47,976 nucleotides of DNA. It comes from a virus. Lineage: Duplodnaviria; Heunggongvirae; Uroviricota; Caudoviricetes. The first letter of the stretch is position 1. The number at the start of each line of letters is the position of its first letter. The notes under the pieces are model-generated. The model searched no databases and was not told the DNA's origin. It saw only the letters and a list, made by a program, of their open reading frames with translations. Below, in pieces: positions 8,085-45,038 of this stretch. The DNA is taken from the IMG/VR virus record IMGVR_UViG_3300037471_000830; one strand, written 5' to 3'. Position numbers and translations under genes: made by a program.

Positions 8085-8103
8085 GTCAGCAGTGAGCTAC
8101 AAT
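8075..8103 (+). promoter_or_regulatory. Promoter TTGGAA-N17-TACAAT with a motif copy (AGTCA-GCAG-TGAGC, 8084-8097) in the spacer
   Basis: Canonical 17-bp spacing. The motif overlaps the tape measure stop codon. Confidence 0.7.
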
Positions 8104-14965: not shown

Positions 14966-17900
14966 ATGAGCTACACGGTTTCAAACAACAGCCCCTCGGC
15001 CGGCTACATCGCATGGGCTGGTGTTCACATCACGTTCGATGGCGTGACCTACACCGTCAACAACGCCAACACGAACAAGAAGTACGCCTATTGGGTCAAG
15101 GCGGACTTCGCGACGAACGCTACGGGCTCGCTGCGGACTTCGGACACCTACCCGACGCTGGGCGCGGACGACTGCGTGGTATTCGTGAACAAGAACGGCG
15201 TCTGCACGTCCGCTCTTGATTCGGCCGCTGTGGACGGCTCCCTGGTGGTGCCCGGCACGATCATGGCCGAGGCCATTGCGGCAAACCAGATCGGTGCCAC
15301 GCACATCCTCGCTGGATCAATCACCACTGACAAACTTCTGGTCACGGCACGCGGCTCCGCGCTCAATGCGGACCCGTACATGCTGGACCTGTCGGCGTGG
15401 ATCGGTCCGGCGTCGCTGACTGTGGCGAGCGGCCTGATGACGACGGCGGCCGGCATCAAGTCGGACGTTTACACCCGGGCGCCCATCCTCCCGCTTGACG
15501 CGACCAAGAACCACCGCCTCGAAATCACGTTGAGACAGGAGGGCGCGACCGCTGGCACTGCCTACATTGGCGTCATCTGGCTTGACGCCAATGGCAACGC
15601 TCTGCCGTCCAACGCGGCGCCCATCGCCGGCACAACGACCGGCTGGAACAACGGCACGTATTCGTATTACGGACTGCTCGGCACCGTCGTGCCGGCAACG
15701 GACACGACCTACAGCGTCAACTTCGGCCCGGACGAAGCCTTCAACATTCCCGCCGCCGCGAAGGGCGTGAAGCCCATCCTGCTGCTCAACTACAACACCA
15801 CGGCCGGCGCCGTGATGAAGGTGAGCAAGGTCCACTTGTCGCAGCGCGTGGACGCCAACCTTATCGTTGACGGTTCAATCAAGGCAGGAAAGCTCGATGT
15901 AAACGCTGTGACTTCCGGCACCGTGGCGGCAGGTGCGATTTCCGCCCGGGAGCTTGCCGTGGGTGCTGTCACGGCTGACCGCGTGCTCATCACGGGCAGG
16001 GGGCGTGCGCTCAACGACGACCCCAATTGCCAGGATGCCTCCGCGTGGAGTGACTTGTCGGGCTCTGGCACCTTTGTGCCCGCATCCGTCGCCGATGGCA
16101 ACGTGGGCAGCTCGATCCTGCGCATCACCGGGCAGAAGGCGGTTGCTTCTCGCGCCGTGGGCGTGGTGGATGGCGGACGCTACAAGGTCACTGCGCTGCT
16201 GCGCAAGTCCGTGGCAGGCACGGGCACGACCTACTTGCGCTTCGAGTGCCGTGATGCGGCAGGAGCTTTCACGAGCTATATGGCGACCGCTTTGGCGCCC
16301 GTCACCACGGGCACGCTGGAAGGTCGCAGCCTCACAAGCTCGACCTGGGAGCGTTGGACCGGGTATGTCACCGCCGCAGCCGGCAGCGTCACCGGGCGGT
16401 TGTGCCTGTATGCCAACTGGCTGGCCGGCAGCACGGGTGTTACCGAAGTTCAAGACCTGCGGGTCGAGGAATACATCGGCGCTGACCTGATCGTGCCTGG
16501 CGCGATCCAAGCGGGACACCTGGGAGCAGGCTCTATCGCGGTAGGCACCGCAGCAGTCGAAGCTGCAGCGATCACGTCCGCGATGATCGGCAGCGTCAAC
16601 GCCGACACCATCAACGCGGGCACCTTGAATGCCGCGCGCATTGGTGCAGGCACCCTCGATGCGTCGAAGATCGACAGCCGTGGCCTGTCCATCAAGGACG
16701 CTGCCGGCAACGTGATCCTGGCTGCCGGCACGGGGCTGTCCGGCAGCAGCACGACCGTAGTGGGCTCGGAGTTCCAGGCGACGCGCGCTTGGAACTTTTC
16801 GGGCACCGCTGACGGCTGGGCGGTGGTGAGCGGCTGCACGCTGACTGCAAACACCAACTCAATCACGGTCAGCTCGTCCGGCGCCGATCCGATCATTGCC
16901 GCCACGAGCCTGAGCATCGCCGGGTCGCTCAACACCAAGGTTCGCGCCCGCGTGCGTCGAATCGCCGGCGCGGGTTGGGACGGCACGCTGTTCTATTCGA
17001 CGGCAGGGCACGGCTGGAGCTCCAGCTACATGAAGAACATCGGCGCCCCCGCTGGCTCGGGCTGGGTGGTGCTGGAGTGGGATATGGCGTCCCTGACCGC
17101 TGGCGGCACGGACTGGATCAGCAACACCGTCACCGGATTGCGCCTTGACCTGGGCAGTACCGCAGCAGATCAGTTCGAGATTGACTGGATCGCGGTGGGC
17201 GGCACGTCGCCCGCGTCCTACGGCGCAGCGTGGGGCGATGTGTCCTCGCGCCCCGTGTCCTATCGCGCAGTGTCGCGCGGACTTAGCAGCACTACCCACC
17301 CGACAGGGCCGGGACTCTATGACGCAGAAACCAACAGCCTGATTTTCAGCCCTATTACCAGCGGCTATGCGGTGTACCGAATCACTCGGCCCACAGGTCA
17401 ATGGGCCAATGCTGCTGCGATTTTCAACATTTACGCATCTTCCTCTGACCTGACGGACATGGTGACGTACCTGAATGCCATCGGCAGTTCGGAAATCGTC
17501 ATCATCACGACCTACGACGAACCAAAAGCAAACCGGCTGGACCCGGCGCTCGCCGCTGCGATGTATCGTCATGGCGCCAGCCGAGCAGTGTTCGGAAGCC
17601 CCTCGTTCAAGTCACGCGCCGCCTATGTCCTGGTGGGCATCGGTGCGTGCGGCGAGGGCAATGGTTTTGAGGCGTACCAGGGCAGCGTGGACAACGACAC
17701 GAATGCCTGGTGTGACGCGGCATTCCAGGTCCAAAACGGCAACCTGATCGTCAGCGGCACGTCCGCGACCCCGCGCACGCTGGCGGACTACAGCTACACG
17801 GGCGACCTCAACGCCAGCTCCGACATCCTGTTGACCGCCTCCAGTGGCATCGCGCTGACTGGCAATGCAGCTAAAAAGACCGGTGGCAGTGGCGCTGCTT

Positions 17901-20900
17901 GGGATCAGCAGGTTTACAGCCGTGATAGCTACACCGGAGGCGCCTACGTCAGCGCAGTTCCGTCGCAAAACAACCTGGCGCTGATGTTCGGGTTGAACTC
18001 GGACCCGGCTACGGACGCCAGCTTCACCAGCATCGACTACGCGATGTATGCCGGTGCTGATGGCAGCCTGTATGCGTATGAGTCGAACGTGTCGAAGGGC
18101 GTGATTGGCTCATACGTTGCGGGCGATGTGCTGGCTGTCACCTATGACGGCTCAAACGTCCGGTACATGAAGGGCGGCACCATCCTGCGCACGGTCAGCG
18201 CAACGATCGCCGCGCCGCTGTTCTTCGACAGCTCGTTTTACAGCCTCAACGCGCAATTGACCTCCCTGCGTTTCGGGCCGATGACGAGCAACGCCTGGAG
18301 CAGCGTTGGTGGCGCAGGCAAGCCCGAAGACAACGCGACTGTAGGCGCTCCTGCCGGCACGTTCGTCAACGGGGTGCCTGTGGCGACCATCACGCAGGCG
18401 GTGACGGACTTCAACAGCTCGAATAACCGCAACTCCAAGCCGGTCGGGGCACCCACTATCGTGACCACTGGCGCGTCTGTGGACCACACGATCCAGACCA
18501 ACGGCTCTGCCGATGTGTCGTTTGAGTGGGCGTGGTCCACCGCTGGCGTTGTTACGGGCAGCATTTCCGGCACGACCCTGACCGTTGCCGCCGTCACGTC
18601 CGGTTCGCTGTGCGTTGGAATGGCGCTCACCGGAACTGGCGTCACCGCAGGCACCTACATTACCGCGCTGGGCACGGGCACGGGCGGCACCGGCACCTAC
18701 ACCGTCAGCACGTCGCAAACCGTCGCCAGCACGACGATTACCGGCACGGGCTCGGAGGGTGATATTGATGGCTTCCTCGTGTACGTCTATCAGACGACGC
18801 TGGGCACCGCGACTTTCAACGCCACCGCCACCGGCGTCGATGTGGCGAACAACGTCATCACGACGACTGCCGCACACGGATTTGTGACGGGGCAACCGCT
18901 GGTGTACTCCAACGCCGGGGGTACGACCGTGGGAGGGCTGACGCAGGGTGGCACCTACTACGCCATCAACGCCAGCGCCACAACCCTGAAGTTGGCGACC
19001 AGCGAGCCCAACGCCATCGCAGGCACGGCCATAGACCTGACGGCAGCAGGCACCGGCACGCAAAATTTCTCGGGCGGCAAGGCGTACACGCTGGGCACGC
19101 TGCCGGCAAGCGAAACCGTCTATCAGGTTCCGGCGAGCAAGCGAGCCTTCATCCTGTTCGGCACGGCGGCTGACCGCTGCTACACCTTTGGCGTGCGGGC
19201 CTATCGTGCGGTGGACAAGGCCGTCAACAGTGCCGGTCTGATCCAGAGCACGCTGGTCAAGCCCGGACTCGGCAGTGAGAACCCTTACACGCCTTCGCGC
19301 ATCGTCGCGTTTGCAGGCAACGTCACGGGCACTGTCAACGGCATCTCCGCGACAAACGTCAACGTGTGGTCCGCGATCTCTGGCGCGGGCAGGCCCGAGG
19401 ACGGCGCGACGGTGGGTGCGAACTGGAGCACCAATCTCACCGGCATCCCGTACCAACAAATCCTCAACAACGAGGACAGCGCCGCGCTGGGGTTTTACCC
19501 CAACTTCAACGACTGGACCGGCGCGGCTCCCGCGACCTGGACGCAGTACGCCTCGGCGGTGCCGACCAAGAGCACGCTGACTGGACGCACGACGCCTGCG
19601 GCACGCTTTGTCGTTGGATCGGGCGGACAGGGCGGACTCTACAAGCAATACAACTTCGCCAACCCGCTGCCTGCCGGCACGTTCTTGTCGGGCTCTCTGG
19701 ACGTGTACTTGGAGGCATACACCAGCGGCAAGCCAGGCATCCTGGTGGACCTCATCACGTCTGCGGACGGCGTTTCGTATGACCGCACGCCTACCGTGGT
19801 GCCGTCCACGACAACGGGTAGCTGGCAGCGACTGCTCTGGACCGCGCGTGCGGGTGCGGGCAAGTCGATTTACGGCATCCGCATTTACCTGATGGCGTCG
19901 TACACCGGATTCGCCACGGGCGGCTTCGTCGGGACCGTGCTGTTCGATGCCCTGCGCTTTGCCCTGTTCGACAGCTCCGTGGACAACAAGGCGGTGACCA
20001 TCGGCAGCGACGGGACGCTGACGGGCGCGGGCGGGGGCCAGGTCACGATCACGGGCCTGGGGTACACGGGCGACCTCAATGCGTCGTCCGAGCTGACCTT
20101 TGTCGCCAGCGGCGGCGTCACTGTTGCGGGTAACAAGCTGACCCGCACTGCGGCTGGTTCGTCCTGGGACCAAGGCGCCTATTCGCGCGAACACTATACG
20201 GGTGGCTGCTTCGCCTCGGCGCGCGCTGTGAACGCCACAACGAGCCTGATGTTCGGACTCAATTCGGACCCTTCGACCGATAACGGCTACGCCGGCATTG
20301 ACTACGCGATCTATCTGAACTCGGGCACGCTGCGCATATATCAGGGCGGCACGCAGATTGGTAACGGGTACGGCACTTACGCTGCTGGCGACGTGCTGAC
20401 CGTCGCTTATGACGGCTCCTTTGTGCGGTACTACAAGAACGGCGTTGCATTCGGAACCCCGGTCTCCGTGATCATCACTGCGCCGCTGTACTTCGACAGC
20501 AGCTTTGTTGCGCCGAACGCCAGCATCGAAGCAGTGCGCTTTGGTCCTTACGGCAACCCGTCCGCAATCCAGCCCAGCAACCCGATTACGCCGACCAATG
20601 CAGCGGTATACATCTCGGACCTCGCCGTAGATACCCTGCAAATTGCAAATAACGCCATTACGGTTCCGGCATCCCAGATGATTCCTGCGCAGCTTTATGG
20701 GCAGGTTGGGTATATGTCCTCAATGGCGGCTTCTGTGGACATGGGGTCCAGCGTCGGCAACATATTTGTCAGCGTCACGCTCAATACCTACAACCCCAAC
20801 AAAACAACAAACACCATCACCATAAGCAAGAACGGAACCGCCCTCATCAGCTACACAGGGTTGACGTACCCATCATCGGGGAGTAATGCCAATTGCACAC

Positions 20901-21019
20901 TGACTTATGTGATAACCAACGCTACGGGGGTTAACTCAATTACCGTGACGATGGATGGGCAAAACTCGACCAACTACATAATCCAAGGCACTCTGTTTGC
21001 GATAGGTACAAAGAGATGA
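14966..21019 (+). CDS. Giant multidomain tail fibre / adhesin (2017 aa)
   Basis: GTITADK-like shaft repeats, galactose-binding-like modules, an ILEI/PANDER-like domain, two SPRY/ConA-like repeats, an FN3-like domain with inserts, and an AT-rich tip. Confidence 0.85.
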
Positions 21020-21947: not shown

Positions 21948-22624
21948 TGGACGCGCTGCCGCCCAACGCCGGCCTGTACCTGCCCGCCCTGGTTGAGCAG
22001 GCCCGCGCGGTGCTGCCCCAGGTGCCCACGGTCCTGTTCGCGGGCCAGGTGGAGCAGGAGAGCTGCATCAGCCTCAAGCACTCGCGTTGCTGGAACCCCA
22101 AGGTGGAGCTCAAGACCGCCAGGGAGTACGGCTTCGGTCTGGGTCAGCTCACGGTGGCCTACAACGCGGACGGCAGCGAGCGGTTCAACGCCTGGAGGGA
22201 AGTGCGTCAGCTCGACAGCCGGCTCGCCAACTGGACCTGGGAAAACCGCTACGACGCCGGGATGCAACTGCGCGCCATCGTCGTGAAGGACCGCCAGGCG
22301 CTCAGGCTCGGCACGGCCGGCGTGACCGACCCGAAGGAGGCCAGGGCGATGATGTTCGCGGCCTACAACGGCGGCATCGGCGGGCTGCTGTCCGACCGCA
22401 AGCTCTGCCAGGCCACGCCCAAGTGCGACTGGACGCGCTGGTGGGCCAACGTGGAGCTGCACAGCAAAAAGAGCCGCACGCCCTGGCACGGCTACGGCAA
22501 GTCGGCCTTCGACATCAATCGCGAGTATCCGAGGCTGATCGAGCAGCGGGCGCCGAAATATGCGCCGGCCGTCCAAAACTTGACAGAGCGCCAGGCCGTC
22601 GCGGACAATATCAGTCACCACTGA
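21947..22624 (+). CDS. Endolysin, SLT-type lytic transglycosylase
   Basis: Start at a TGATG overlap. Catalytic QVEQES motif, GFGLGQLT and AAYNGG motifs. Confidence 0.85.
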   Translation: MDALPPNAGLYLPALVEQARAVLPQVPTVLFAGQVEQESCISLKHSRCWNPKVELKTAREYGFGLGQLTVAYNADGSERFNAWREVRQLDSRLANWTWENRYDAGMQLRAIVVKDRQALRLGTAGVTDPKEARAMMFAAYNGGIGGLLSDRKLCQATPKCDWTRWWANVELHSKKSRTPWHGYGKSAFDINREYPRLIEQRAPKYAPAVQNLTERQAVADNISHH

Positions 22625-22626
22625 TT
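22580..22626 (+). promoter_or_regulatory. Promoter TTGACA-N18-GACAAT plus motif copy (AGTCA-CCAC-TGATT, 22613-22626)
   Basis: Perfect -35 inside the endolysin 3' end. The TGA of the motif is the endolysin stop codon. Confidence 0.7.
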
Positions 22627-22630
22627 TATT

Positions 22631-22987
22631 ATGAACCCAGGCAAGCAGAACATTACCTTCCGACCTGGCGCCGACTTCAAGTGGCCGCTGGTGTGGAAGG
22701 ACGAAAAGGGCAAGCCGGTGAACCTCACCGGCTTTTCTGCGCTCATGCAGTTCCGCGAGAGCGCGGATTCGCCTTTGGTGATTGCCGAGTTCTCCACCGC
22801 CAACGGCCGCATCGTCCTGGGCGGCGCCACTGGTTCGATCACGATCGACATGGACGCGGCCAACACCGGACTCGTCACGCATCGCGGCGCGCTGGTGTAC
22901 GACCTCATCCTCGTGGCGCCTGGTGGTGACGACTACCCGCTGCTTGAAGGCAAGGTCACGATCCGTCCGGTGGTGAGCAAGCAATGA
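22631..22987 (+). CDS. Small beta-sandwich virion-associated protein (BppU-N-like)
   Basis: NITFRPGADF...PVNLTG...YDL...LLEGKVTIRP pattern, common in phage structural cassettes. Confidence 0.55.
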   Translation: MNPGKQNITFRPGADFKWPLVWKDEKGKPVNLTGFSALMQFRESADSPLVIAEFSTANGRIVLGGATGSITIDMDAANTGLVTHRGALVYDLILVAPGGDDYPLLEGKVTIRPVVSKQ

Positions 22988-27193: not shown

Positions 27194-27203
27194 TGCGGAA
27201 TAT

Positions 27204-27219
27204 CAGTCATCAGTGACTG
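27204..27219. promoter_or_regulatory. Perfect motif copy CAGTCA-TCAG-TGACTG
   Basis: Intergenic, at the downstream end of the accessory cassette. Confidence 0.85.
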
Positions 27220-27272: not shown

Positions 27273-27656
27273 ATGCCTCAGTCTGCTCAAAGCCCGGACC
27301 TCTCCATCCAGATCATCGAGGCGCTGCGAGCGGTCAATGGTCATGTTTCCAGCACCAAGGAAGAACTCGCCGCCATTCGCGGCAGCATGAGCCAGATGGC
27401 CGAGGCGATCACGCGCTTGGCTGTGCTGGAGGAAAAGCACCAGGGCATCGCGGCCGACATGCGTCGTGCCGAGGAAAAGATCGAGGGCCTGGATGACGCC
27501 ATCACGCAGATGAAGCTGGAGAACGCCAGCTTGCGAGGCCAGGCACAAGGCGCCAGCGTGGTGGTCAAGGCCATGTGGACGGTGGCTGGCACGGGCGTCA
27601 TCGCCATCGCGGCAGCGCTGATGAAGATCGCCTTCGGTTCTGGCCTTGTAGGCTAA
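27273..27656 (+). CDS. Coiled-coil protein with C-terminal TM helix (holin / antiholin-like)
   Basis: Heptad-rich body, single hydrophobic C-terminal segment, directly upstream of the spanins. Confidence 0.5.
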   Translation: MPQSAQSPDLSIQIIEALRAVNGHVSSTKEELAAIRGSMSQMAEAITRLAVLEEKHQGIAADMRRAEEKIEGLDDAITQMKLENASLRGQAQGASVVVKAMWTVAGTGVIAIAAALMKIAFGSGLVG

Positions 27657-27661
27657 AGATA

Positions 27662-27675
27662 AGTCATCGGTGACT
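27662..27675. promoter_or_regulatory. Perfect motif copy AGTCA-TCGG-TGACT, overlapping TAAAAT
   Basis: Fills the gap before the i-spanin gene. Confidence 0.85.
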
Positions 27676-29619: not shown

Positions 29620-30348
29620 ATGGCTCGCAAACCCACCCGCCGACAAGCCGCCCTCGAATCCAAGAGGGCAGGGCGCTACGCGCCTGACGAGGACTTCACC
29701 GTGCCCGCCAAGGAGCGTCGCGAGACTGGTCCAGTCGAAGCCAAGACCGCCAACCAGAGCAAGTACCTCAAAGCGATCCGCAACAAGACCATCGTCTTCT
29801 CCATCGGCCCAGCCGGCACCGGCAAGAGCTATGTCGTGGCCGCTGAGGCTGCGGAACAGCTCAAGGCCGGCGAAGTCGAGCAGATCATCCTCACGCGCCC
29901 TGCGGTGGAGACCGGCCCCTCGATGGGCTTCCTGCCTGGCACCCTGGAGGAGAAGTACGCGCCCTTCCTGGACCCCTTCAAGGACACCCTCCAGCGCCGC
30001 CTGGGCAAGAGCGCCTACGACGCCCACCTGAAGAACGAAAAGATCGCGCCTCGGCCGCTGTCGCACATGCGTGGTGCCACGTTCAAGAATGCGGTGGCGA
30101 TCCTGGATGAAGCACAGAACATCACGCCGCACGAGATGCTGATGTTCCTCACGCGCATCGGCGAGGGCTCCACAGTGGTCATCAACGGCGACCTGGAGCA
30201 GCAGGACATCCCGGGCCTGTCGGGTCTGCGTGACGCCATCGAGCGCCTGGAGGGCCATCCCGACGTTGCTGTGATTGAGTTCACGGTGGACGATATTGTC
30301 CGTCACGGTCTTGTGAAAGACATATTGCTGGCTTATCGGCGCCGGTAA
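29620..30348 (+). CDS. phoH: PhoH-like ATPase
   Basis: SD AAGGA, ATG at 29620. GPAGTGKS, LTRPAV, MRGATF, LDEAQN, NGDLEQQD motifs. Confidence 0.92.
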   Translation: MARKPTRRQAALESKRAGRYAPDEDFTVPAKERRETGPVEAKTANQSKYLKAIRNKTIVFSIGPAGTGKSYVVAAEAAEQLKAGEVEQIILTRPAVETGPSMGFLPGTLEEKYAPFLDPFKDTLQRRLGKSAYDAHLKNEKIAPRPLSHMRGATFKNAVAILDEAQNITPHEMLMFLTRIGEGSTVVINGDLEQQDIPGLSGLRDAIERLEGHPDVAVIEFTVDDIVRHGLVKDILLAYRRR

Positions 30349-30421: not shown

Positions 30422-31180
30422 ATGAAAGCTGAAAACATTACGCTGAGCGTAGGCGGTCCCCAAGTCACCCAAGCCGACCTGTTTGGCTCCTTCATAGGTG
30501 CGGATCGGGACTTCGACGCCTACGAAAGCGTCGCCTTCAAACTGATCCCCAAGAAGTTGCGGGAGAAAGAGGCGGCCCTGTTTGGCAGCAAGTGGTTCGA
30601 TTACCGTCAAATGCACGCGATCCAGGCTACATACCTGTTTGTGCATTTTTATAATGTCGCTTACGGGAGTTTTCTGGCGCAGACCAGCGACGTAAAGCTG
30701 CGCTACGCCAAAGCGATCAAGGGCGGCGACGTATTCCTTCAGAACGAGGGTAAGGGCCACCGCGACCGGCTCGCCTTCTGGCGGCTGCGCCAGCGTGCTG
30801 ACGAGTACGGTATCCGCTACGACTTCTTCGTCCGTGCCGCCTTCGCCTGCTTCGTCGAGGACGGCTGGGTCAACGCGCCGCGTCCGCAGCACGTGGACAA
30901 CGACGAGATCACCCTGCGCGTCCTGGATGCCTGGCACCGCGACTGCCGCGACCGCATCCAGTGGGCCAGGAACCCGTTCTTCACCGTCAAGGACTGGAGC
31001 GGCCATCCTGACCAGGCCGCCTACGAGAGCAGCATCGTCGAGGCGATCAAGCGCAAGCCGACGAAGCGGTTTGCCATCCATGGCGCCATCTACGAGCGCG
31101 ACGCGCTGCGCATCGAACGCGCCATTGTCGAGTTCAGCGAGGACGATGTTGCGGAAGCCATCGCCCTTGCCGAGAAATAG
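30422..31180 (+). CDS. Hypothetical phage protein (252 aa)
   Basis: Clean ORF with coding-like codon usage. No recognised motif. Confidence 0.7.
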   Translation: MKAENITLSVGGPQVTQADLFGSFIGADRDFDAYESVAFKLIPKKLREKEAALFGSKWFDYRQMHAIQATYLFVHFYNVAYGSFLAQTSDVKLRYAKAIKGGDVFLQNEGKGHRDRLAFWRLRQRADEYGIRYDFFVRAAFACFVEDGWVNAPRPQHVDNDEITLRVLDAWHRDCRDRIQWARNPFFTVKDWSGHPDQAAYESSIVEAIKRKPTKRFAIHGAIYERDALRIERAIVEFSEDDVAEAIALAEK

Positions 31181-31182
31181 TC

Positions 31183-31202
31183 AGTCAACACTGAGCTATA
31201 GT
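31183..31202 (+). promoter_or_regulatory. Motif copy (AGTCA-ACAC-TGAGC) directly followed by -10-like TATAGT
   Basis: Heads the hfq-like / helicase / primase unit. An 8-bp hairpin TGCGCTGA-GGTT-TCAGCGCA follows at 31211-31230. Confidence 0.75.
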
Positions 31203-31246
31203 GGTTGTCATGCGCTGAGGTTTCAGCGCACCACCGGAGAGTTTTC

Positions 31247-31651
31247 ATGTCCACCCACAACACCTACCCGTTCCCCCGTGCCCGCGTCAGCGAGGCCGTC
31301 ACCACCGAGCGCGACCGCCAGATCATCGAAGCCCGTCGCATGGAGGGCGGCGCCGCCGTGCGTCCGACCATTCGTCCCAAGACCTCCGCCAAGCCTGGAC
31401 CCAAGGGTCACGAGGCGCTGCTCAAGGGCCTGGAGGCCAGCGGGGCACAGGTCGAGGTGATGCTGCGGGACGTGGATGTGCCCAAGCGAGGCATCGTCAA
31501 GCGCAGTGACTCCTACACGATTTCGCTGGAGACCACGCTGCCCAATGGCAGCACGGTGACGGACGTGCTGTTCAAGCACGCCATGATCGGGTTCCGCGTC
31601 ACGACGCCGCGCCCGCTGAAGGAAGAAGGCACCGACGCGCTGGGGGCTTGA
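31247..31651 (+). CDS. Hfq / Sm-like RNA-binding protein with N-terminal extension
   Basis: GIVKRSDSYTISL aligns by eye with the Hfq Sm1 motif and VLFKHAM with Sm2 (MVYKHAI). SD GGAGA. Confidence 0.7.
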   Translation: MSTHNTYPFPRARVSEAVTTERDRQIIEARRMEGGAAVRPTIRPKTSAKPGPKGHEALLKGLEASGAQVEVMLRDVDVPKRGIVKRSDSYTISLETTLPNGSTVTDVLFKHAMIGFRVTTPRPLKEEGTDALGA

Positions 31652-31654
31652 TTC

Positions 31655-33019
31655 ATGTCGGAGGAAACCAAAGAGGCGCTGCCCTCTGCGGAGCCGGCTG
31701 AGGAGCCCGTCACTTTCGACTTCGACGCCGAGTTCCAGACCAAGGTCGCGGCGCTGGCGTTCCGCAGCGGCACGTTCATGCGTCAGGTCTCGCACCTGAT
31801 CAAGCCGGAGTATTTCGAGAACGCTGCGGAAGCCTGCCTGGTCAACGTGGCGCTCAAGCACTACGAGAAGTACCGCGAGGCGATTTCGGACCTGAAGCTC
31901 TGCAAGGGCGTCCTGGCCGAAGCGATTCGCACCAAGCTCATCCGAGCTGAGGAGAAGACGGAAGTCGTCGGCAAGGTCCGTGAACTGTTCGAGGCGGACA
32001 TTGCCTCGATGGGCTTCGTGGTGGATCAGGTCGCCAACTTTGCCCGCACGCAGGCTGTAGGCAACGCGATCCTGTCGGCGGTGGACCTGCTGAAGAAAGG
32101 CGACTACGAGAAGATCGAGCGCCTCATGAAGCAGGCCCTGGGCACCGGGGTGCGCAAGGAGGAGGCCGAGTACGACTTCTTCGCTGAAGCCGAGAAGCGC
32201 GCGGAAGCCCGCCTTGAGCTGGCTGCCGGCACGGTCGGCCCTCGCGGCATTACCACGGGCCAGCGCCAGATCGACGACACGCTCTATCACAAGGGTTGGG
32301 GTCGCAAGGAGCTGAGCCTGCTGCTGGGCGGCGCGAAGGCGGGCAAGACCACGGCACTGATCAACTTCGGCCTGGCTGCGGCGCAGGTTGGCTACAACGT
32401 GTGCTACTTCACGCTGGAAGTCGGCCACACCATCATCAGCGACCGAAGCGACGCCTCCATCAGCGGCACGCCGATGAAGTCAATCATGTCCAACATTCAT
32501 GCCATCAAGGATTCGATCCTGGGCATGAGGACGGGCGTGGGCAAGTTCATCATCCAGGAGTTCCCCACGGGCACGATGCGTCCTGCCGACGTGGAAGCGT
32601 TCCTGGAGCGGTGGGAGTCCACCAAGGGCGTCAAGTTCGACTTGGTGATCGTGGACTACGCGGACCTGATGGCGCCGAACTTCCGCTACAACGAGCCGAT
32701 CGAGAACTCCAAGAGCGTCTATACGGACCTGCGTGCCTGCGCACACAAGTTCGATGTGGCGGTCTTGACCGCGACGCAGACCAACCGCGAGGGCTTCAAG
32801 TCAACGGTGGCGAAGGCCGAGCACGTTGCGGAGGACTTCAACAAGATTCGGATCGCCGACATCGTGATTTCCATATCAGTCACTGATGAGGAACGAGCGT
32901 TGGGCGAGGCGCGTCTGTACTTCGCGGCCAGCCGCAACACCGAGGGCGGCTTCTGCCTGCGCATCAAGCAGGACATCGCCCGAATGCGGTTCATCGAGAA
33001 AGTCCTGGGGAGAGAGTGA
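31655..33019 (+). CDS. DnaB-like replicative helicase
   Basis: Walker A GGAKAGKT, FTLEV, VIVDYAD, TATQTNREG motifs. Confidence 0.92.
   Translation: MSEETKEALPSAEPAEEPVTFDFDAEFQTKVAALAFRSGTFMRQVSHLIKPEYFENAAEACLVNVALKHYEKYREAISDLKLCKGVLAEAIRTKLIRAEEKTEVVGKVRELFEADIASMGFVVDQVANFARTQAVGNAILSAVDLLKKGDYEKIERLMKQALGTGVRKEEAEYDFFAEAEKRAEARLELAAGTVGPRGITTGQRQIDDTLYHKGWGRKELSLLLGGAKAGKTTALINFGLAAAQVGYNVCYFTLEVGHTIISDRSDASISGTPMKSIMSNIHAIKDSILGMRTGVGKFIIQEFPTGTMRPADVEAFLERWESTKGVKFDLVIVDYADLMAPNFRYNEPIENSKSVYTDLRACAHKFDVAVLTATQTNREGFKSTVAKAEHVAEDFNKIRIADIVISISVTDEERALGEARLYFAASRNTEGGFCLRIKQDIARMRFIEKVLGRE
32878..32891. promoter_or_regulatory. Intragenic motif copy (AGTCA-CTGA-TGAGG) in the helicase 3' end
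   Basis: Encoded with codons ATA TCA GTC ACT GAT, which are unusual for this GC-rich gene. Confidence 0.6.
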
Positions 33020-33114
33020 TGCTGACAAGGTTCTTTGGTTTGGCGACCTGCGTCGCCTACGACGCCCCGTGGTGGGTGTTCGTGATCGGCTTTCTCTGCC
33101 TGCTGATGGATTGA
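33019..33114 (+). CDS. 31-aa hydrophobic peptide MLTRFFGLATCVAYDAPWWVFVIGFLCLLMD
   Basis: TGATG coupling to the helicase; stop 3 nt before the primase ATG. Below the ORF-track cutoff. Confidence 0.65.
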   Translation: MLTRFFGLATCVAYDAPWWVFVIGFLCLLMD

Positions 33115-33117
33115 GCC

Positions 33118-34203
33118 ATGTCCAACCGCAACGACGACTTGAAAGAGGCGCTGGAGCGGCTGGACTTGCAAGCCTGGCTGGACCGCGAGGGTGTGGACTA
33201 CCGCACCACGCGCGGCTCCAGGGGCGTGCAACTCAACGTCCGAGAGTGCCCCTGCTGTGGCGGCAACACCTGGAAGGTGTACCTGGGCGCGGAGAGTGGC
33301 CTGGGCAACTGCTTCTCAGGCAGTTGCCAAGTCAAGTTCAACCGCTGGAGCTTCATCCGGCACACCCTGGGCCACCTATCCACCAAGGAGGTCATCGAGC
33401 ACATCAAGGACTTCGCGAAGGAGCTGGGCTGGCGTCCGGTGCGTCGCGAGAGCCTGGCCGTTAACCTGGACACGGAACTCAAGCTTCCCAAGTCCTATGA
33501 ACTGCCCATCGGCGGCAAGAACCTGAAGTACCTCATCAACCGTGGCATCGGCGCGGACATGGCGGGCTACTTCCGGCTGCGCTTTTGCAAGGAGGGCTTC
33601 TTCGCCTACGAGCACGAAGGCAAGCGCCTCAAGCAGTTCTACAACAACCGCATCCTCATCCCGATCTTCGACCTGGAGGGCGACTTGGTGTCCTTCCAGG
33701 GCCGGGACATCACCGGCGACGCGGACAAGAAGTACCTGTTCCCGCCTGGCTTCGCCTCGACGGGCAAGTACCTCTACAACGGCCACAACGCCTGGGGTGC
33801 GGAGCACATCGCGATCGGCGAGGGCGCCTTCGACGTGTACGGACTCAAGCTGGCCCTGGATTCGCAGCCCGACACGCGCGCCGTGGTGCCCGTGGGCAGC
33901 TTCGGCAAGCACCTGTCGCATGGCGACGATGAGTCTCAATTGGGGCAGCTCCTGAAGCTCAAGGAGCGCGGGCTGCGCATCGCCACATTCATGTGGGACG
34001 GCGAGCGCCAAGCGTTCGAGGATGCCATCGAGGCTGCCTTGATCGTGCGCAAGCACGGGATCACCGCCAGGGTCGCCACGCTGCCCCAGGGCAAAGACCC
34101 CAACGAGGCGACGCAGGAGGAAGTGCTGCGGTCCTTCTGGACGGCGACCTCCATCGACACCGCCACCGCCGTGAAGCTCAAGATGGGTCGGCAATACCTC
34201 TAG
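33118..34203 (+). CDS. DNA primase (Zn-binding domain + TOPRIM)
   Basis: CPCC...CFSGSC Zn cluster, GEGAFD, WDGE, KDPNE motifs. Confidence 0.9.
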   Translation: MSNRNDDLKEALERLDLQAWLDREGVDYRTTRGSRGVQLNVRECPCCGGNTWKVYLGAESGLGNCFSGSCQVKFNRWSFIRHTLGHLSTKEVIEHIKDFAKELGWRPVRRESLAVNLDTELKLPKSYELPIGGKNLKYLINRGIGADMAGYFRLRFCKEGFFAYEHEGKRLKQFYNNRILIPIFDLEGDLVSFQGRDITGDADKKYLFPPGFASTGKYLYNGHNAWGAEHIAIGEGAFDVYGLKLALDSQPDTRAVVPVGSFGKHLSHGDDESQLGQLLKLKERGLRIATFMWDGERQAFEDAIEAALIVRKHGITARVATLPQGKDPNEATQEEVLRSFWTATSIDTATAVKLKMGRQYL

Positions 34204-41687: not shown

Positions 41688-41716
41688 ACTGTATCAGTCA
41701 GCACTGACTATTGCAA
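41688..41716 (-). promoter_or_regulatory. xis promoter TTGCAA-N17-TACAGT with a perfect motif (41696-41709) in the spacer
   Basis: Minus strand reads TTGCAA TAGTCAGTGCTGACTGA TACAGT. Confidence 0.8.
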
Positions 41717-42388: not shown

Positions 42389-42630
42389 TTGTTTCTCCTG
42401 TTGTCGTGTCGCGCCTCACTTGAGACTAAGAGTTGTGGCGGTACGTCTTCATCGAAGTCCGCGCAGTTGTTCTCGACCAAAGTATAGAGCAGGAACACAC
42501 TTTCTATAGCTAAGTAGTGACGTACAAAAGTGGCGTTACTCGCCAAAAGTTCACTACCTTGATCACTAACAGGTGAACTAGAATCACCACATTGCTGCTT
42601 GTTGCAGCGTCACGCAGTTGGAGAAGTTGA

Positions 42631-45004: not shown

Positions 45005-45022
45005 CAGGCGACCCGTCAGAAT

Positions 45023-45038
45023 AAGTCACAAGTGACTT
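45023..45038. promoter_or_regulatory. Perfect motif copy AAGTCA-CAAG-TGACTT
   Basis: In the CobT-CobS intergenic region. Confidence 0.85.

Follow-up and report, generated by a model that had tools for sequence, protein, structure and literature searches.

Does a phage gene that lies immediately before a replicative helicase gene encode a true Hfq and, if it does, what would such a protein do at that position? Hfq, a hexameric sRNA chaperone, is among the best-studied bacterial RNA regulators. A literature search found no study of a phage-encoded Hfq; what is already known is the fold, the family and one cultured orthologue labelled hfq in GenBank (Nican01). We addressed this question in the DNA of an uncultured soil phage of the class Caudoviricetes (IMG/VR virus record IMGVR_UViG_3300037471_000830). 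The window is the whole stretch of 47,976 nucleotides that was analysed, with a G+C content of about 63%; its sequence is present in DNA runs from soil and rhizosphere metagenomes, with no RNA run among those listed.

Identity of the Hfq-like protein

The span first pointed out (31197-31651) contains a promoter-like element, a leader and a single gene; this gene, the parts of its product and its ribosome-binding site are as follows.

31247..31651, plus strand: Hfq-like gene encoding P0001, 134 aa (family profile, AF2 model, Foldseek)
31247..31405, plus strand: N-terminal extension, residues 1-53 (helix 19-33 in the AF2 model, then a basic, Pro-rich linker)
31406..31600, plus strand: Sm/Hfq core, residues 54-118, including the FKHAM Sm2 motif at residues 109-113 (AF2 model, Foldseek, HMM alignment)
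31236..31241, plus strand: Shine-Dalgarno sequence GGAGAG, read from the sequence, with the ATG 5 nt further on

GGAGA-type sites also precede the start of the Hfq-like gene in most of the related loci. A longer form beginning at a TTG codon at position 31205 is unlikely, since the homologues conserve the N-terminus from residue ~19; this conservation argues that the 134-aa form is real and that its start was not mis-called.

Compared on its own with the Pfam Hfq profile, P0001 gave a match with E = 0.027 and 14.5 bits, under the 27-bit cut-off, and this weak match spans the right region of the protein (residues 58-113 on profile positions 5-54). A phmmer search of the PDB with P0001 alone yielded chance-level matches only. 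The exhaustive phmmer search over 1.84 billion representatives retrieved 104 proteins at E <= 1e-3, representing clusters at 50% identity. One of them, P0067 (538 aa, six matched stretches), turned out to be an Ig-like repeat protein, that is, a false positive and not a fused Hfq hexamer, and it was left out; the remaining 103 homologues constitute alignment A1. The Hfq profile PF17209 is matched by 98 of these 103 proteins (best E-value 6.2e-12), and TIGR02383 by 90. When the A1 family profile was compared with solved chains, 37 distinct Hfq sequences were matched (best E = 2.4e-11), and the best scores among them corresponded to 1kq1, 3ahu and 4nl2, which are of the Gram-positive type.

The AF2 model obtained with A1 has a pLDDT of 84.9 overall and of 92-98 over the core, where it shows the Sm topology: a helix (residues 55-65) followed by five strands (68-73, 80-87, 91-97, 103-109 and 113-118). 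Foldseek, which the original prediction had named as a check against Hfq/LSm structures, agreed with the predicted Sm fold, given that the best 50 PDB matches are all Hfq, with a TM-score by target of up to 0.90 and an rmsd of 1-3 Å. Identity of the core to cellular Hfq is about 20-25%. The alignment with Hfq that had been made by eye is identical to the HMMER alignment of E. coli Hfq on the family profile, which pairs F11 with L58, D40 with D88, and Y55-K56-H57 with F109-K110-H111. By its family profile and its predicted fold, P0001 thus truly belongs, as a diverged member, to the Hfq branch within the Sm superfamily, as had been proposed from the single sequence. It would most likely assemble into a hexameric ring like that of Hfq, judging from homology, the predicted fold and the conserved motif at the beta4-beta5 interface. 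PHROGs places this family in two groups of unknown function, phrog_19781 and phrog_5258.

The phage family shares with bacterial Hfq (PF17209, TIGR02383; 1kq1, 3ahu, 4nl2, 6gwk) the Sm fold with its helix and five strands, the [FY]-K-H-x-I sequence of the Sm2 motif, and the pocket residues D40, F/Y42, K56 and H57. It differs from it in being phage-encoded, with the gene coupled to a helicase gene, in having a longer and variable beta3-beta4 loop, and in that P0001 falls below the Pfam cut-off (14.5 vs 27 bits). We also considered the Hfq-related PF21979 (Hfq_1)/NF047718 cyanobacterial type, which comprises diverged Hfq-like rings: these two profiles are matched by 8/103 and 7/103 members, respectively, the solved chain 3hfn of this type is matched by the family profile at E = 0.0012, and the nearest ESM Atlas clusters carry either PF21979 or PF17209. 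However, canonical Hfq fits the family far better than Hfq_1 (98 members vs 8) and, in contrast to the Hfq_1 type, the phage family retains K-H in its Sm2 motif. BFVD also contains models of other Sm or Hfq-like proteins from phages.

Among the relatives by helicase similarity, orthologues are found in the Nickievirus phages of Pseudomonas syringae (hairong, nickie, phiK7B1, ZY21 and Nican01), where they occupy the same slot as in the window, between the 250-aa protein and the helicase. By hhalign they belong to the same family as A1 (probability 97.6, E = 2.7e-12) and, unlike P0001, hairong_042 lies above the Pfam Hfq cut-off, with 31.4 bits. The Nickievirus proteins are shorter (88 aa), carrying the basic linker only, without the N-terminal helix motif. 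The product is annotated as 'hfq: RNA-binding protein Hfq' in Nican01 and as 'hypothetical protein' in 5 of the 6 Nickievirus records. Of the family members used as tblastn queries, only P0003, from the Nickievirus group, retrieved cultured relatives; P0001 and P0022 gave no match in 50,697 phage records.

Predicted RNA-binding surfaces and the N-terminal arm

To compare the RNA-binding surfaces, residues were counted by column in the 103 family sequences, using as reference the E. coli hfq product from NC_000913 aligned to the family profile. By E. coli position, the counts are the following.

Proximal pocket, D40: D in 103/103
Proximal pocket, K56: K in 103/103
Proximal pocket, H57: H in 101/103
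Proximal pocket, F42: Y or F in 100/103
Proximal pocket, Y55: F or Y in 103/103
Proximal pocket, Q8: His in 103/103, with an invariant Gly just before it
Proximal pocket, Q41: Lys in 85/103; Ser89 in P0001
Rim, R16: E in 81/103; E63 in P0001
Rim, R17: mostly T or A; A64 in P0001
Rim, R19: G in 68/103; G66 in P0001
Rim, K47: basic in only 49/103; Glu in P0001
Distal face, Y25: E in 41/103, otherwise variable, with no aromatic residue among the seven commonest; M72 in P0001
Distal face, I30 and K31: not conserved

At the level of these aligned columns, most residues of the proximal pocket are kept in the Hfq-like family, and the arginine rim and the distal A-rich (ARN) site are lost. The Sm2 motif of P0001 (F109-K110-H111-A112-M113) is located at the beta4-beta5 turn. 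Two positions of the pocket set the family apart from E. coli Hfq or vary within it; the invariant His in place of Q8, together with Ser89 at the position of Q41, means that several specificities are possible for the predicted pocket of P0001. Other differences from E. coli Hfq are the replacement of R16, R17 and R19 by E, T/A and G, the non-aromatic residue at the Y25 position, and the C-terminal tail, which is short in the phage family (median 15 aa) and long and disordered in E. coli Hfq. The absence of the rim is shared with the Gram-positive type. Gram-positive Hfqs also lack the arginine patch, which serves RNA annealing in proteobacterial Hfq, so this patch marks a functional subclass and not the Hfq family as such.

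The N-terminal extension, with its basic linker and extra helix, is a further feature that E. coli Hfq does not have. The original prediction of a basic, Pro-rich extension of about 55 aa was close to what we measured in P0001, 53 aa with 6 Pro, 11 Lys/Arg and 5 Asp/Glu. Helix 19-33 bears the motif R22-x2-Q25-x3-G/A29-R30-R31-M32, and the same arrangement (R-x2-Q-x3-G/A-R-R-M) is present in most family members. Across the family the extension has a median length of 47 aa, and the net charge of the 25 residues just before the core lies between +3 and +7 (median +5) in 103/103 members, with +5 in the arm of P0001. The family represents a natural experiment, an Hfq with a predicted proximal surface only and a new basic arm.

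This pattern of surfaces bears on two of the roles that were initially put forward. If P0001 were a classical general RNA chaperone, it would stabilise phage or host sRNAs and pair them with their mRNA targets. Its membership in the Hfq family, with the proximal pocket and the Sm2 motif, is in line with such a role, and the basic N-terminal arm could replace the lost arginine rim. However, the rim and distal surfaces that E. coli-type Hfq needs for matching are not conserved, which indicates that P0001 is probably not a general sRNA-mRNA matchmaker; besides, an Rfam scan of the window revealed no known RNA family, and the solved chains with the best profile scores (1kq1, 3ahu and 4nl2) are of the Gram-positive type, for which sRNA-matching roles are weak or unclear. 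We consider a classical chaperone unlikely.

The second role is that of an anti-host factor, which would sequester host sRNAs by their U-rich 3' ends or assemble with host Hfq into defective rings, thereby shutting down sRNA regulation in the infected host. A ring that has only the proximal surface, and that grips sRNA 3' ends without presenting mRNAs, would be a natural sponge. In contrast, the core identity to cellular Hfq, of only about one residue in four or five, and the long beta3-beta4 loop, which varies between 6 and 23 residues across the family, make mixed rings doubtful, and the formation of mixed hexamers with host Hfq is unlikely on these sequence grounds. The location of the gene, described below, also bears on this possibility.

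Promoter-like motif, gene order and inheritance

The elements that lie upstream of the Hfq-like gene, and the genes that surround it, are listed next.

31184..31202, plus strand: promoter-like motif GTCA-N4-TGAG-CTATAGT (repeat count in the window and related loci)
31211..31230, plus strand: 5'-leader hairpin with a perfect 8-bp stem and a loop of 4 nt (RNAfold)
29623-30345, plus strand: PhoH
30422..31180, plus strand: 252-aa all-helical protein (phrog_2500), directly upstream of the Hfq-like gene (synteny, AF2)
31655..33019, plus strand: DnaB-like replicative helicase (Pfam DnaB_C, phrog_19)
33019..33114, plus strand: hydrophobic small ORF, 31 aa, an open frame between helicase and primase
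33118..34203, plus strand: DnaG-type primase (Pfam DNAG_N)
2595-2613, 8085-8103, 22614-22632 and 31184-31202, plus strand: copies of the promoter-like motif (motif scan of the window)
1660-1678, 27199-27217, 27656-27674, 41690-41708, 42503-42521 and 45018-45036, minus strand: copies of the promoter-like motif (motif scan of the window)

A motif plus TATAGT had been noticed before the gene. We found the -10-like hexamer TATAGT at 31197-31202, with GTCA-N4-TGAG before it, and the complete 19-nt motif occurs 10 times in the window at <=2 mismatches, against 0.07 copies expected. The consensus of these copies is GTCA-N4-TGA(C/G)-(C/T)TATA(A/T)T, and, of 60 distinct related loci, 55 have the motif ahead of their Hfq-like gene. 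A scan for sigma-70 -35/-10 promoters gave no fit to it, and a normal -35 element is absent; hence, another factor may recognise the GTCA/TGAC half-sites. Their inverted arrangement suggests a phage-specific factor or an operator. A further GTCA or GTCG is seen about 6-8 nt past the -10 hexamer in many related loci.

The perfect 8-bp hairpin that the original prediction placed in the 5' leader does exist, as part of a structure of -18.4 kcal/mol (RNAfold, z = -1.76), but it is not conserved beyond chance, given that stems of at least 6 bp are present in 23 of 55 related leaders and in 36% of shuffled leaders. Elsewhere in the window, several further copies of the motif are also followed by similar stems. 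For these reasons, we treated the hairpin as a generic 5' stem and not as a specific feature of the Hfq-like gene.

The ATG of the helicase gene (31655) is 3 nt past the stop codon of the Hfq-like gene. The primase, which had also been described as coupled, starts at 33118, separated from the helicase stop by 98 nt, and is thus co-oriented with the helicase but not itself coupled. The claim of coupling thus stands for the helicase, while the primase is only on the same strand. Beyond the primase, and on this strand too, are genes for a WGR-domain protein and an ATP-dependent DNA ligase.

A pattern scan of IMG/VR with A1 yielded 75 viral loci, many of them on contigs of 105-114 kb. The order PhoH, ~250-aa protein, Hfq-like protein, DnaB and DnaG was observed in 75/75 loci, often with WGR and ligase genes next, which backs the view that the Hfq-like gene heads the helicase-primase genes. 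Over 73 loci, the helicase start nearly always lies between -10 and +5 nt from the Hfq-like stop, and about 22 loci show an ATGA overlap. The Hfq-like protein and the helicase are correlated in their pairwise distances (Mantel r = 0.74, p = 0.001), as are the 250-aa protein and the helicase (Mantel r 0.83), and the Hfq-like protein evolves faster than the helicase (mean p-distance 0.57 vs 0.41). As judged from these distances, the correlation shows stable co-inheritance with the module and not interaction, since shared ancestry alone yields it. The family is large (75 viral loci, and 104 clusters when grouped at 50% identity) and old, and it is fixed before the replicative helicase throughout a lineage of phages of roughly 110 kb.

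This fixed position is relevant to the anti-host role. Expression from the putative phage promoter would suit such a factor; however, a gene of this kind would not be expected to be locked before the helicase across the divergence observed here. Anti-host genes are usually located in early, variable regions. Considering also the surfaces discussed above, an anti-host function seems improbable, although if the protein did sponge host sRNAs it would represent a new kind of phage counter-regulation.

The gene is not universal in phages with this helicase. The helicase-related Rhizobium phages B1VFA, V1VFA-S and RHEph10, and Salmonella SSU5, have the same helicase-primase module with no Hfq-like gene; these sister phages indicate that the gene is accessory, neither essential to nor a core part of this type of replisome. 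Its dispensability in sister lineages would also be expected of a passenger gene that has no role of its own and is retained by linkage alone. Against this, the frame is intact and residues G54, H55, G82, D88 and K110 are invariant over 103 representatives that are 30-57% identical, which together indicate purifying selection. That the gene is a mere passenger is, in our opinion, very improbable.

Regarding the possible hosts, the orthologues in cultured P. syringae phages make the function open to a direct test. A search of 185,579 species genomes with one strict peptide pattern, too insensitive to show absence from bacteria, returned one locus, on contig NZ_JBJCIU010000006.1 (L080) of Massilia sp. 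TN1-12. This contig has 112,962 bp, and ~113 kb is the size of a whole phage of the clade; its family member scores 113 bits against the A1 profile. The locus may mean that some members of the clade have betaproteobacterial hosts. At least part of the clade is temperate, as indicated by five related IMG/VR records with provirus status, all of which have ParB-like genes and, at one end, a tyrosine integrase. In Stenotrophomonas phage BUCTxx99, the same slot is occupied by a 69-aa ORF (L082:1281-1490) whose stop overlaps the helicase start. This ORF was rejected as an Sm member because its resemblance to Sm1 is by eye only, with no support from Pfam, hmmsearch or hhalign.

A possible role in the replication module

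From the strict position, the coupling and the proximal-only pattern of residues, we favour, at about an even chance, the idea that the protein is an RNA binder with a single binding surface, the proximal face, serving the replication module, over a classical matchmaker or a poison of host Hfq. The gene would open the helicase-primase operon, with transcription from its own copy of the repeated phage promoter, and would be translationally coupled to the DnaB-like helicase, so that both proteins would be made together. The proximal pocket, which in Hfq accommodates U-rich single-stranded RNA and 3'-OH ends, would bind RNA and possibly also ssDNA. One option is that the protein acts on the mRNA of its own operon, setting the dosage of helicase and primase; another is an action at the fork or the origin, where its target would be primer or transcript RNA.

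A replication role fits the position and coupling that are invariant in 75/75 loci. Nevertheless, phage genes whose products do not interact commonly show such gene order and tight coupling as well. A complex prediction for the Hfq-like protein and the DnaB-like helicase (alignments A1 and A2), run without controls, gave a score of 0.00, which speaks neither for nor against binding.

The same location could be explained by an accessory that acts on the DNA side of the replisome and has no RNA role, namely an ssDNA-binding ring that would help to load or stabilise the DnaB-like helicase, in the slot where other phages have small helicase loaders. The gene is always directly upstream of the helicase gene and coupled to it, and the solved complex of E. 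coli Hfq with dsDNA (5uk7) is among the fold matches. An SSB of the PF00436 type was not found in three complete related genomes. However, it was not found either in the relatives that have the same helicase and manage without the Hfq-like gene; SSB is therefore absent with and without this gene, and the observation does not discriminate. Moreover, it is the pocket for RNA uridines whose residues are conserved. Archaeal plasmids, for their part, do pair Hfq-like with helicase genes (PMC3543421). Weighing both sides, we assign a low probability to a function restricted to DNA.

The archaeal case is an independent parallel for the proposed link with replication. Krupovic et al. 2013 described Zn-finger/Hfq-like genes in Thermococcus and Methanocaldococcus plasmids, directly downstream of helicase genes and apparently in one transcription unit with them, and only speculated on a link to replication (PMC3543421). 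The likeness, which is by description, consists of a mobile-element Sm domain adjoining a replicative helicase gene; in the archaeal plasmids, the gene lies downstream of a different helicase and its product has an N-terminal C2H2 zinc finger, whereas in the phages it lies upstream and its product has a basic arm. By analogy, Sm/Hfq rings might be a recurrent, unrecognised accessory of mobile-element replisomes, with a direct role at the fork or origin and no link to sRNA regulation. In that case, the ring would, for example, grip the 3' ends of RNA primers or of origin transcripts, or help to load the hexameric helicase, and the same explanation would cover both the phage genes upstream of DnaB and the archaeal plasmid genes downstream of helicases. 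We put forward this broader proposal tentatively, and regard it as rather doubtful. If the phage protein does act on replication RNA or on the helicase, Sm rings would be tied to mobile-element DNA replication in both bacteria and archaea.

The 252-aa protein encoded directly upstream (phrog_2500) is present at that place in all related phages, whether or not they have the Hfq-like gene. AF2 predicts for it, with confidence (pLDDT 93), an all-helical structure. As a candidate initiator or loader, it gave no PDB match by sequence and no PDB match with Foldseek; VIA-align returned Z <=5.9, which is noise for helical proteins, and its AFDB neighbours are all uncharacterised.

Two minor elements of the window are also worth describing. 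ARAGORN called a tRNA-Val(GAC) at 16540-16625 on the minus strand, inside a 2017-aa ORF (14966-21019); this is probably a false call, as no Rfam tRNA is found there at the gathering score. The 31-aa ORF at 33019-33114 on the plus strand is strongly hydrophobic, its ATG overlaps the TGA of the helicase gene and its stop is located 3 nt before the ATG of the primase gene; it may encode a small membrane peptide or may be merely an open frame.
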